From the IMG/VR virus record IMGVR_UViG_2693429642_000019: a DNA stretch of 4,423 bases; one strand, given 5' to 3'. The first letter of the stretch is position 1. Each line of letters starts with the position of its first letter. The notes below the pieces were generated by a model, which searched no databases, was not told where the DNA came from, and saw nothing but the letters and a program-made list of their open reading frames with translations. The translations under genes were made by a program, and so were the position numbers. The DNA comes from a virus. Its lineage: Monodnaviria; Loebvirae; Hofneiviricota; Faserviricetes; Tubulavirales. Below are positions 2,218 through 2,951 of this stretch, piece by piece.

Positions 2218-2643
2218 ATGAATCAAATTTACGACAGTTTTCCGTTTCCTTCCCCTGAGGGTTTTACCTCAGGCATGACAATGGCGGGATATTTTATTCA
2301 CGTCACTGTCATAAATGATGAGGAGTTAAAACCCACGGGTTCTCATTATAACCCTGAGGCTAAACCCAAATATGCCATTGTTATTGCCTATCCGTATGAG
2401 GACCGAAAATTAAAAGTCCGCCGTGAGGAGCATGAGCGCTTTTCCTGTACTGAGGAGGATTTTAAATTTTTTAATTCATGTCCTGATTTGCAGGGCAAAC
2501 CTGTTTATCTCACGGTGGATGTTAACTCATGGGCGACAGGCTCAGAACGTCATGGTGTCTGGTATCGTTTTATTTCCGGCTCCATGAAACGTTTTGACGG
2601 TCAGCCGCTGGGTGCACTGCCCGCAGGTAAAGAAAAAGGCTGA
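2218..2643 (+). CDS. Hypothetical 141-aa protein at the gV position; candidate ssDNA-binding protein
   Basis: ATG at 2218 preceded by SD GAGGAG (2204-2209) with 8-nt spacing. It starts 31 bp after the rep stop and its TGA stop overlaps the next gene's start region. Function is inferred from position only; a GKPVYL segment is weakly reminiscent of M13 gpV. Confidence 0.65.
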   Translation: MNQIYDSFPFPSPEGFTSGMTMAGYFIHVTVINDEELKPTGSHYNPEAKPKYAIVIAYPYEDRKLKVRREEHERFSCTEEDFKFFNSCPDLQGKPVYLTVDVNSWATGSERHGVWYRFISGSMKRFDGQPLGALPAGKEKG

Positions 2644-2647
2644 TGAT

Positions 2648-2788
2648 ATGTCTGACGCTGATTTTCTGAACTTTGTTTTATTTGCTGCGCCTGCAATGAT
2701 TTTATTTTCTTCAGGTTTTGGCATCGGAATAAAACTGATTCGCGCCTGTGACTCACAAAGCATTACTGTTCAGCGTTATTATGACTGA
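2648..2788 (+). CDS. Small hydrophobic protein (46 aa) at the gVII position; candidate minor coat protein
   Basis: First ATG (2648) in the frame of ORF 2594..2788, 5 nt after the upstream stop (TGATGATATG junction). The product MSDADFLNFVLFAAPAMILFSSGFGIGIKLIRAC... has one hydrophobic helix. Its stop TGA 2786-2788 overlaps the next ATG. Start is uncertain (TTG 2594 also possible). Confidence 0.5.
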   Translation: MSDADFLNFVLFAAPAMILFSSGFGIGIKLIRACDSQSITVQRYYD

Positions 2789-2951
2789 ATTTGATTTCAG
2801 CGGTGTTTTATCCGCACTGAATTCTGGCGTACAGGACGGGGAGCTTTACTGGTCCGTTCTTTATGTCTGGATTGTCTGCTGGCTTCTTGGCTTTGGTCTT
2901 GGTGTTATTTTCACTCTGGTCTGCCGGATGTTCAGTGATGCTGTTAATTAA
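2781..2951 (+). CDS. Small membrane protein (56 aa) at the gIX position; candidate minor coat protein
   Basis: ATG 2781 overlaps the stop of the preceding gene (ATGACTGA), suggesting translational coupling. The product has a strongly hydrophobic segment YWSVLYVWIVCWLLGFGLGVIFTLVC. An alternative GTG start at 2748 is in the same frame. It ends 25 bp before the coat gene start. Confidence 0.5.
   Translation: MTEFDFSGVLSALNSGVQDGELYWSVLYVWIVCWLLGFGLGVIFTLVCRMFSDAVN

Follow-up and report, generated by a model that had tools for sequence, protein, structure and literature searches.

Two small genes of an uncultured Escherichia coli inovirus prophage as candidate pVII-like and pIX-position minor coat genes, probably translated by coupling

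Ivey-Hoyle and Steege (1989, 1992, as cited in PMC2268962) demonstrated translational coupling in a filamentous phage for gene VII of f1, whose inherently defective initiation site is made functional by coupling to gene V. Termination and re-initiation with short-range bidirectional scanning was described for MS2 by Adhin and van Duin (1990, as cited in PMC2268962). In f1, the virion end that is first to emerge has about 5 copies of pVII, which is required for assembly to be initiated (PMC10175506). The first-pass annotation of the locus presented here had assumed that coupled re-initiation is described for both gVII and gIX of M13. The f1 experiment bears this out for gVII; for gIX we found no experimental demonstration of coupling in the literature, and the Shine-Dalgarno sequence (SD) of M13 gIX is strong (-9.1 kcal/mol).

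The window, that is the whole analysed stretch of 4,423 nucleotides, is a filamentous (inovirus) prophage of E. coli with 99.5% identity to NZ_CM128593.1. In that nearly identical prophage the structural module is ordered as rep, gV-position gene, ORF46, ORF56, coat gene, gIII-like gene, gVI-like gene, Zot/gI and secretin/gIV, and the inovirus morphogenesis module around ORF46 and ORF56 is complete. Of 5,426 complete E. coli genomes that were searched, about 40 carry the inovirus. Among 50,697 phage records no cultured phage matched the whole window (megablast) or the gV-position protein (tblastn), and the Zot/gI protein was only 31-35% identical to those of fs2, f1 and other cultured phages (tblastn); judged by these searches, the prophage appears to have no close relative in culture. 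A search of species-representative genomes with the gV alignment gave no confirmed locus, the family alignments of ORF46 and ORF56, scanned against viral contigs, brought up nothing beyond the same 15 near-identical E. coli contigs, and a word-indexed protein search found one near-identical cluster for each of the two small proteins. The features of the region are as follows.

2218..2643, plus strand: gV-position gene, 141 aa, from the ORF list, with a strong SD (GAGGAG); presumed ssDNA-binding protein
2636..2650, plus strand: junction 1, comprising AAGG 2636-2639, TGA 2641-2643, in-frame TGA 2644-2646, T, and ATG 2648-2650
2648..2788, plus strand: ORF46, 46 codons, ATG 2648, TGA 2786-2788; pVII-like small protein, RefSeq WP_001422058.1
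2768..2790, plus strand: junction 2, with the 8-nt overlap ATGACTGA of the ORF56 ATG (2781-2783) and the ORF46 TGA (2786-2788)
2781..2951, plus strand: ORF56, 56 codons, ATG 2781, TAA 2949-2951; pIX-position small protein, RefSeq WP_000134226.1
2976..3218, plus strand: gVIII-like major coat gene, encoding a signal peptide; the product matches phrog_1646 (major coat protein) weakly, at E = 0.017
3234..3258, plus strand: intrinsic-terminator-like hairpin with T-run, from a terminator scan (stem of 7 bp, 6 of them G-C, then TTTTTT)

The gV-position protein matches phrog_30648, a family of unknown function, over its full length and Pfam Putative_G5P weakly (E = 0.081); the pN/pS of its gene is 0.17. 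The gVIII-like gene starts 24 nt past the ORF56 stop behind its own SD, AGAGGA at 2965-2970, and has a pN/pS of 0.43 with the variation lying in the N-terminal part. No promoter-like site was found on the plus strand from 2100 to 3400, and the terminator-like hairpin would close a transcription unit made of gV, ORF46, ORF56 and gVIII.

Our data on 14 distinct alleles show that ORF46 and ORF56 are real coding genes, conserved more than chance would allow. The pN/pS is 0.10 for each of them, and 15 of the 20 variable sites in the two genes together fall at codon position 3 (5/7 in ORF46 and 10/13 in ORF56; binomial p = 1.7e-4 for the total), while the alternative plus-strand frames over both genes give a pN/pS above 1 or have zero synonymous changes. 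The minus-strand ORFs 2542-2763 and 2601-2756 and the plus-strand ORF 2863-2979 have no codon-position-3 bias and were rejected as coding. In RefSeq both products are labelled hypothetical proteins starting at ATG 2648 and ATG 2781, PGAP used these starts in the RefSeq records examined, and every full-length E. coli record shown carries four PGAP CDSs under the gV-to-gVIII match. The proposal of two small genes with ATG starts is thus confirmed by conserved frames, purifying selection and the agreement with PGAP, and the positions given for the gV stop (2641-2643), for both ATG codons and for the ORF46 stop are all correct, as are the lengths of 46 and 56 codons. The accompanying remark, that callers commonly miss or mis-start such small genes, is sound in general: a protein cluster has the GTG 2748 start (P0002), and in four related loci the pVII-position ORF is not annotated. 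In this lineage itself the callers do find both genes.

One would argue that one or both genes start farther upstream, at TTG 2594 (64 aa) or GTG 2748 (67 aa), as both of these reading frames are open and the 67-aa version is on record from ENA assemblies as P0002, with 54 member sequences. However, each of the four substitutions in 2594-2647 leaves the gV protein unchanged but alters the putative extension, and this pattern rules out the TTG start, which additionally has an SD energy of -1.7 kcal/mol and no parallel in the relatives, whose genes begin past the gV stop. The SD energy of GTG 2748 is +0.6 kcal/mol, in the related modules L004 and L061 the ATG of the homologue is not preceded by any in-frame start, and L026/L005 do not keep the extension VTHKALLFSVI, whereas they do keep the residues past ATG 2781. 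The N-terminal F-D-F/E-F motif of the ORF56 homologues aligns from ATG 2781 as well, and PGAP prefers the ATG codons to both upstream starts. The GTG 2748 start is therefore disfavoured by the relatives, and we hold upstream starts to be very improbable.

ORF46 consists of an acidic N-terminus (D3, D5), an uncharged helix at 6-28, K29/R32 and a 14-residue C-terminal tail (ACDSQSITVQRYYD); ORF56 consists of 21 acidic N-terminal residues, an uncharged helix at 22-48, R49 and a short C-terminus. The 19-residue Kyte-Doolittle maxima are 1.93 and 2.39, respectively, in accordance with the earlier description of one hydrophobic helix in each product. The single-sequence AlphaFold2 models contain one helix (2-45) for ORF46 and helices 6-17 and 20-55 for ORF56. 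This layout of charges and helix parallels the cryo-EM description of pVII and pIX in f1 (PMC10175506). The relatives of ORF46, 33-37 aa long, stop 1-2 residues past the aligned Arg; the tail is lineage-specific, and it could plausibly have arisen by the loss of an ancestral TGA near 2747-2751, as the comparison with L061 suggests.

Comparison of the ORF46 family with pVII of Ff, IKe, If1 and I2-2 yielded an hhalign probability of 74% and a score of 23.9, in a collinear alignment that runs end to end from Met1 to Met1 over 27 columns. The column-shuffled null gave 9.1 +/- 2.3 with a maximum of 17.3, so that 0 of 200 shuffles reached the score, and the cross-controls gave 1.6% for the ORF46 family against pIX and 13.4% for the ORF56 family against pVII. 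At the level of profiles a specific remote similarity of the ORF46 family to pVII is thereby supported. In the hmmscan search of Pfam, ORF46 and three relatives had no match to PF19978 (Inovirus_G7P_2) at E <= 10; the pVII proteins of M13 and IKe match this model at 1e-21 and 2e-17. PHROGs, Pfam and NCBIfam contained no meaningful match for either small protein, and the hits to DUF2798, LegC3 and LapA were discarded as sub-threshold transmembrane noise. A single helix matches anything in a fold search. The PDB profile searches with ORF46 and ORF56 did not recover the f1 pVII and pIX chains, and the matches to YejM, PsbI and other PDB entries were set aside as chance transmembrane matches.

The same comparison of ORF56 with pIX of Ff, IKe, If1 and I2-2 gave hhalign probabilities of 0.8-1.8%, and 33 of 200 column shuffles scored as well. 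Pfam and NCBIfam contain no pIX model, and M13 pIX itself matches nothing there. An identity of ORF56 as pIX would thus be one of position and architecture only. Its homologues are 52 aa long in L004, 55-56 aa in L026/L005 and 58 aa in P0003 (48% identity); the latter is the only true distant homologue recovered by an exhaustive HMMER search, and P0004 was dismissed as a repeat-protein artefact. The earlier suggestion that both products resemble minor coat proteins of the virion tip agrees with their charge and hydrophobicity layout, which is that of pVII and pIX, and with the pVII similarity of ORF46, but it does not extend to a sequence similarity between ORF56 and pIX.

Both junctions had been called overlapping. 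This is true of the second one, with its 8 shared nucleotides, whereas the first reads TGA TGA T ATG, two tandem in-frame stops with a 4-nt spacer from the first stop to the ATG. Among the 14 distinct alleles there are zero variable positions from 2626 to 2667, and the stretch of junction 2 is invariant too. We expressed SD strength as the energy of the duplex with the anti-SD, for which the window-wide background mean is -2.4 kcal/mol. ATG 2648 has an SD energy of -3.2 kcal/mol, owing to AAGG 2636-2639, and ATG 2781 has no SD (+0.6 kcal/mol), while the neighbouring starts reach -8.8 (gV), -6.0 (gVIII), -7.2 (gIII) and -9.3 kcal/mol (rep); the absence of a strong Shine-Dalgarno, which had been noticed at both genes, is hence evident. 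The pVII-position starts of M13, IKe, L003, L004, L026 and L061 are similarly weak (-1.5 to -3.3), and stop/start distances from -11 to +5 nt are found in Ff, IKe, If1, I2-2 and most prophage module types. The AAGG of ORF46 is 4 nt long and workably spaced, and some independent initiation at this gene is possible.

The ORF56 ATG and the ORF46 stop lie within a predicted 9-bp RNA hairpin, GUUCAGCGU-UAUU-AUG(A)CUGAAU, with an energy of -6.1 kcal/mol. The predicted probability of the start codon being unpaired is 0.04 for the ORF56 ATG and 0.90 for ATG 2648. The hairpin is no more than suggestive and not statistically exceptional: among shuffles of 2760-2800, 9.5% form an equally stable fold, and z is -1.85 for the 91-nt region. 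As the stretch is invariant, and thus offers no covariation, and the shuffle statistics are weak, a role of the hairpin as a conserved regulatory element is unsupported.

Coupling would be recognized in a sequence by a start close to or overlapping the upstream stop and by weak initiation sites; here the starts lie at +4 nt and in an 8-nt overlap, and both sites are weak. We consider it likely that this uncultured E. coli inovirus prophage has its minor coat genes in ORF46 (pVII-like) and ORF56 (pIX-position) and that both are translated by coupling. One transcript would carry the two genes together with the abundant gV-position gene and the gene for the major coat. Of the ribosomes that terminate at the gV double stop, a small fraction would start again at ATG 2648, 4 nt downstream; those that finish ORF46 at 2786-2788 would melt the hairpin and start again at ATG 2781, which lies 5-8 nt upstream. 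The outcome would be a low and roughly equal output of both proteins, with gVIII initiating independently from its own strong SD. Each product would be inserted into the membrane by one helix, lacking a signal peptide, with the acidic N-terminus outside and the basic C-terminus inside. If f1 is taken as a guide, the cap at the first-emerging virion end may be formed by five copies of each protein, their C-termini facing the DNA packaging hairpin.

It could be that both genes do encode tip proteins, but that each is initiated de novo, independently and inefficiently, with the help of AAGG, an A/U-rich leader and ribosomal protein S1, the low output resulting from poor sites and the tight junctions reflecting genome compaction only. 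AAGG is indeed located 8 nt upstream of ATG 2648, which is predicted to be mostly unpaired, and the relatives tolerate wider gaps of 23 nt (gV/g7 in L004) and 19 nt (g7/g9 in L061). A stop codon that overlaps or abuts the next start is a frequent feature of E. coli operons (such an overlap is found in about 9% of E. coli ORFs, as quoted in PMC2268962), and compact genomes pack stops and starts closely whether or not coupling occurs; an overlap by itself is thus no diagnostic sign of coupling. The pIX-position genes of related modules possess a decent SD of their own (-6.5 to -7.4), and therefore coupling at junction 2 is not a conserved trait of the family. Such initiation is difficult to reconcile with ATG 2781: it has no SD, and according to the prediction it is 96% paired, within a hairpin whose opening would take a ribosome translating ORF46. 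Additionally, the closest experimental case quoted in PMC2268962, f1 gene VII, needs coupling. We therefore regard independent initiation of both genes as unlikely.

Another explanation, which we find somewhat less likely still, is that ORF46 is a pVII homologue and ORF56 an unrelated inner-membrane protein with an assembly, exclusion or regulatory role, the pIX function being absent or encoded elsewhere. That no sequence signal links the ORF56 family to pIX speaks for this, as do the length of 56 aa against 32-33 and the additional N-terminal helix. The order of genes in this slot is flexible too: in L003 and L028 a single small ORF separates gV from gVIII, and a different hydrophobic ORF of 25-29 aa comes past gVIII, and L061 has an extra hydrophobic ORF of 75 aa ahead of the pVII-like gene. 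However, the ORF56 family adjoins a pVII-like gene in four different structural modules, and the acidic N-terminus, the one helix and the basic residue right past it are pIX-like. The module in the window offers no other candidate small ORF, and canonical pVII and pIX have themselves no detectable similarity to each other (hhalign 0.7%), so that a weak signal is expected for such short helices. Thus a pIX equivalent encoded by ORF56 remains our preferred reading. One could go further and imagine a cap built differently from that of Ff, in which the ORF46 tail would reach into the lumen toward the packaging hairpin and ORF56, unrelated to pIX in sequence, would show its acidic N-terminal helix at the outer tip. 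The related modules L005 and L028 go beyond this, with pVII-position proteins of 80 to 91 residues that are extended far at the N-terminus and lack a signal peptide, so that a natural N-terminal "display" on cap proteins and a non-homologous replacement of pIX could both be widespread; we find this picture rather doubtful.

In annotation, the "hypothetical proteins" WP_001422058.1 and WP_000134226.1 can be labelled as pVII-like and pIX-position minor coat candidates, and a profile from the alignment made here could recover genes of 33-57 aa in inovirus surveys. Cap proteins would seem to tolerate terminal extensions, which is relevant to phage display on pVII and pIX. The gV-to-pVII coupling arrangement of f1 would be extended to a lineage as distant as the Zot/gI identity indicates. 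The arrangement as such is ordinary, known from M13, and calls for no new mechanism.

Compared with pVII of Ff (PF19978), IKe, I2-2 and If1, ORF46 likewise follows right after gV, starts a few nucleotides past the gV stop and has no real SD. It shares with them the lack of a signal peptide, the acidic N-terminus and a helix of about 23 uncharged residues, its small residues in G-x-x-x-G-like spacing, followed by Arg/Lys. It differs in its length (46 aa against 29-33 aa), in the polar 14-residue tail, which the related prophage homologues of 33-37 aa lack, and in a stop located 5 nt inside the next gene, which creates the 8-nt overlap where the usual junction is ATGA. ORF56 is, like pIX of Ff, IKe, If1 and I2-2, the second small gene, placed between the pVII slot and gVIII, with its start overlapping the stop of the pVII-like gene. 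Like pIX, its product lacks a signal peptide, has one hydrophobic helix followed by basic residues, and is acidic or neutral at the N-terminus. In contrast to pIX, it carries an additional acidic segment of about 21 residues, predicted to form a short helix, and its gene lacks the SD present in M13 gIX and IKe gIX (-6.2 kcal/mol in the latter).

As for translation, the locus resembles both f1, with its gene VII coupled to gene V, and the scanning in MS2, in that an abundant upstream cistron is followed, a few nucleotides away, by a start without a functional SD; the few-nucleotide overlap of ORF46 and ORF56 would need the same back-scanning as in MS2. The f1 gene VII case is an experimental one; in the present phage the putative coupling would differ in that the second junction, too, looks dependent on it, with a start codon predicted to be base-paired.

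The prophage in the window belongs to an uncultured inovirus lineage whose structural genes stand in the classical Ff-like order, since no cultured phage in a collection of 50,697 records matched the window at the DNA level or its gV-position protein, and the prophage's Zot/gI protein shares no more than 31-35% identity with its counterparts in fs2, f1 and others. At 99.5% identity the window matches chromosomal DNA of E. coli strain 100416 (NZ_CM128593.1), where the matching segment lies in a filamentous prophage present as a tandem duplication; among 5,426 complete E. coli genomes, about 40 contain DNA related to it at 80-98% identity. 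In this structural operon ORF46 and ORF56 are the expected pVII/pIX-type gene pair.

Gene order of the prophage (coordinates are window positions)
First: replication endonuclease (Pfam Phage_GPA, phrog_91)
Second: 2218-2643, gV-position gene, 141 aa
Third: 2648-2788 (ORF46) and 2781-2951 (ORF56), + strand, two small ORFs
Fourth: from ATG 2976, major-coat-like gene, 80 aa
Fifth: TTG 3279 onward, gIII-like gene with Phage_Coat_A domain and Gly/Ser linker
Sixth: gVI-position gene, 119 aa
Seventh: Zot/gI ATPase
Eighth: GspD/gIV secretin

Directly upstream of the replication gene, three related prophages (loci L002 5027-5992, L003 4017-4982, L005 3785-4738) carry an IS110-family transposase gene, 3 nt from the replication gene in L002 and L003, which probably acts as integrase in these prophages; it is missing from the window's own genome, where tandem prophage copies adjoin hipBA instead. 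Just 5' of the window's replication gene (GTG 187), palindromic TGCA(C/A)-N-TTGCA(C) half-sites cluster at 82-161, forming three copies of a 22-nt direct repeat and several inverted repeats. This looks like an operator/promoter region, possibly that of a divergently oriented gene for a 62-aa protein, whose annotation in L001 spans 7851-8039. Inside the gIII-like gene (3946-4216) the Gly/Ser linker is encoded by 3.5 copies of a 78-nt repeat, 95% identical to one another; BLAST alignments with other E. coli prophages are interrupted at this place, a sign of possible copy-number variation.

The coding status of both small ORFs was judged from an alignment of gV through gVIII from 18 module-carrying loci in E. 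coli genomes and IMG/VR contigs, which represent 14 distinct sequences. Codon position 3 holds 5 of the 7 variable columns of ORF46 and 10 of the 13 of ORF56, pooled 15/20 (binomial p = 1.7e-4); no such bias was seen in three overlapping ORFs, two on the minus strand (2542-2763, 2601-2756) and one on the + strand (2863-2979). Nei-Gojobori pN/pS is 0.10 for each ORF (gV 0.17, coat gene 0.43); in the other two + frames the ORF46 region contains no synonymous change and the ORF56 region gives 1.5-3.9. A non-coding reading is excluded by this substitution pattern. Near relatives have three protein variants each of ORF46 and ORF56, far fewer than the coat N-terminal half, where 2976-3120 (signal peptide and mature N-terminus) has eight, as would fit a diversifying pressure acting where the filament is exposed.

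The first-pass annotation had placed the end of the gV-position gene and both ORFs at the coordinates listed here, which proved correct, and had named TTG 2594 and GTG 2748 as alternative starts. On substitution evidence TTG 2594 is effectively excluded as a start upstream of ATG 2648: all four substitutions in 2594-2647 are nonsynonymous in the extension and synonymous in gV. Its Shine-Dalgarno (SD) is negligible, and in distant relatives the homologous ORF starts 3' of the gV stop. GTG 2748, the start of a 67-aa version found in one ENA-assembly cluster (P0002), is unlikely: it has no SD, no in-frame start precedes the ATG of the ORF56 homologues in the related loci L004 and L061, and M-T-E-F-D-F after ATG 2781 aligns with the relatives' M-F-D-F and M-D-E-F, which the extension does not. 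The RefSeq PGAP starts, read in two records, are ATG 2648 (WP_001422058.1) and ATG 2781 (WP_000134226.1), and PGAP annotates four CDSs across the gV-to-gVIII match in each full-length record shown.

The earlier description of each protein as dominated by one hydrophobic helix agrees with the single long uncharged segment in each (ORF46 residues 6-28, ORF56 residues 22-48), preceded by acidic residues and directly followed by Lys/Arg. Single-sequence AlphaFold2 predicts one helix for ORF46 (2-45, mean pLDDT 82), and for ORF56 a short helix (6-17) and a long one (20-55), with a pLDDT of about 95 in the hydrophobic region. Since ORF46 residues 1-32 align with a 33-aa protein of L061, ORF46 reads as a core of canonical length followed by a 14-residue tail, ACDSQSITVQRYYD, specific to this lineage. 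By hmmscan, ORF46 and its relatives were not placed in Pfam PF19978 (Inovirus_G7P_2), the controls M13 pVII and IKe pVII scoring 1e-21 and 2e-17; Pfam and NCBIfam hold no pIX model, and profile searches of PDB sequences gave only chance transmembrane matches. By hhalign, the six-member ORF46 family matched pVII (M13/IKe/If1/I2-2) with 74% probability and a score of 23.9 over 27 collinear columns, from Met1 in both, against 9.1 +/- 2.3 (maximum 17.3) for 200 column-shuffled pVII alignments. Cross-comparisons gave 1.6% (ORF46 family and pIX) and 13.4% (ORF56 family and pVII). ORF46 is thus probably a remote pVII homologue. For the ORF56 family homology to pIX was undetectable (0.8%, 33 of 200 shuffles as high); canonical pVII and pIX match each other at only 0.7%, therefore little signal can be expected from such short helices.

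Shine-Dalgarno duplex energies (positions -20 to -3 paired with the 16S 3' end), kcal/mol
ORF46, ATG 2648 (AAGG at 2636-2639): -3.2
ORF56, ATG 2781: +0.6
gV start: -8.8
gVIII start: -6.0
gIII start: -7.2
rep start: -9.3
Mean of all window positions: -2.4

Both junctions had been called overlapping, which holds for one of them. At the first, TGA TGA T ATG, an in-frame tandem double stop is separated from the start by a 4-nt spacer; the second is a true 8-nt overlap, ATGACTGA, which arises because the ORF46 tail puts the stop later. As proposed, neither ORF has a usable SD. Stop/start distances at the matching junctions in M13, IKe, If1, I2-2 and most prophage modules are also short (-11 to +5 nt), with wider gaps in L004 (23 nt) and L061 (19 nt). 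The pVII-position starts are SD-poor throughout (-1.5 to -3.3), the pIX-position starts of most other modules have an SD (-6.5 to -7.4), and those of L061 (-2.8) and the window do not. A predicted 9-bp hairpin (2768-2790, -6.1 kcal/mol) holds the ORF46 stop and ATG 2781, the latter 96% base-paired; it is only suggestive because 9.5% of shuffles fold equally well and the stretch is invariant in the alignment, so that covariation cannot be tested.

The gV-position gene recurs in several E. coli prophages (58-98% identity of the protein) with different modules downstream, and all of these modules keep small hydrophobic ORFs at the equivalent place. The switch occurs exactly at the gene end: several prophages match the window at 98% identity up to position ~2636 and an unrelated structural module follows, the recombination breakpoint being at about 2636-2648 (L003 about 7437).

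Small ORFs 3' of gV in related prophage loci
L004/L025: pVII-position ORF 33 aa, MSVAEFFILILFGAVPVLIFSLAFIGGVITGRR, unannotated; next ORF 52 aa
L026/L027: 37 aa; next ORF 55-56 aa
L005: 80-83 aa, C-terminal core shared, unannotated; next ORF 55 aa
L003/L018/L021: 57 aa, unannotated; coat gene directly next
L061 (metagenome; reached via homologue P0003, 48% identical to ORF56): 33 aa, uncalled; next ORF 58 aa (P0003)

The expectation that callers often miss such genes was borne out: PGAP or the metagenome caller left out the ORF46 homologues at L003 7450-7623, L004 7466-7567, L005 7286-7537 and L061 3872-3973, which occupy otherwise empty gaps 3' of gV. The pVII-position proteins of L005 (7286-7537) and L028 (3502-3777), 80-91 aa and without signal peptide, share a conserved N-terminal extension, MVCQVQPDGSYNCGLFS..., which contains cysteine and precedes the hydrophobic core; if the topology is that of f1 pVII, this would be a natural N-terminal appendage on a cap protein. 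Where a module has a single small ORF in the interval from gV to the coat gene, a hydrophobic ORF of 25-29 aa, conserved and unannotated, follows the coat gene (L003 7925-8002, MFDFIFMMFGSLCGLCCVIGFKSNL; L028 4080-4169, MSQSIFDVVIFIFGALCGFSAVLGFMFSR); it may be a relocated pIX-like gene. In L061 an extra 75-aa ORF (3648-3875), strongly hydrophobic and apparently two-helix, with its own SD (-7.8), is inserted after gV and before the pVII-like gene, whose start its stop overlaps as ATGA.

We found no promoter-like site on the + strand within 2100-3400 and a strong intrinsic terminator after the coat gene (3234-3251 and T-run), therefore gV, ORF46, ORF56 and gVIII are probably co-transcribed as in Ff. 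By analogy with f1, ribosomes that complete the gV-position gene, which is heavily translated, would now and then reinitiate at ATG 2648, 4 nt downstream, those ending ORF46 at 2786-2788 would restart at ATG 2781, 5-8 nt upstream, and gVIII would initiate from its own SD. We infer this coupling, as well as the stoichiometry and virion location of both proteins. One could argue that initiation is weak and independent and that the junctions reflect genome compaction alone; this is possible mainly for ORF46, which has the AAGG and an open start codon. ORF56 could also be an unrelated small membrane protein and not a cap subunit; however, its family is kept beside a pVII-like gene in four different modules, and we regard ORF56 as a pIX analogue by position and architecture, with homology unproven.

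Both genes are already annotated in RefSeq, without names, and we found no literature mention of the WP_001422058.1 and WP_000134226.1 proteins. The findings are chiefly of use for annotation and as a basis for profiles that recover such small genes. The f1 round tip is described as composed of pVII and pIX in five copies apiece, both reported there without signal sequences (PMC10175506). The lineage-specific features are modest: the pVII-like ORF46 carries a C-terminal tail, ORF56 is N-terminally extended relative to pIX, and junction 2 looks coupling-dependent. The ORF56 start lacks the SD that is present at the pIX-position starts of M13 (-9.1) and IKe (-6.2).
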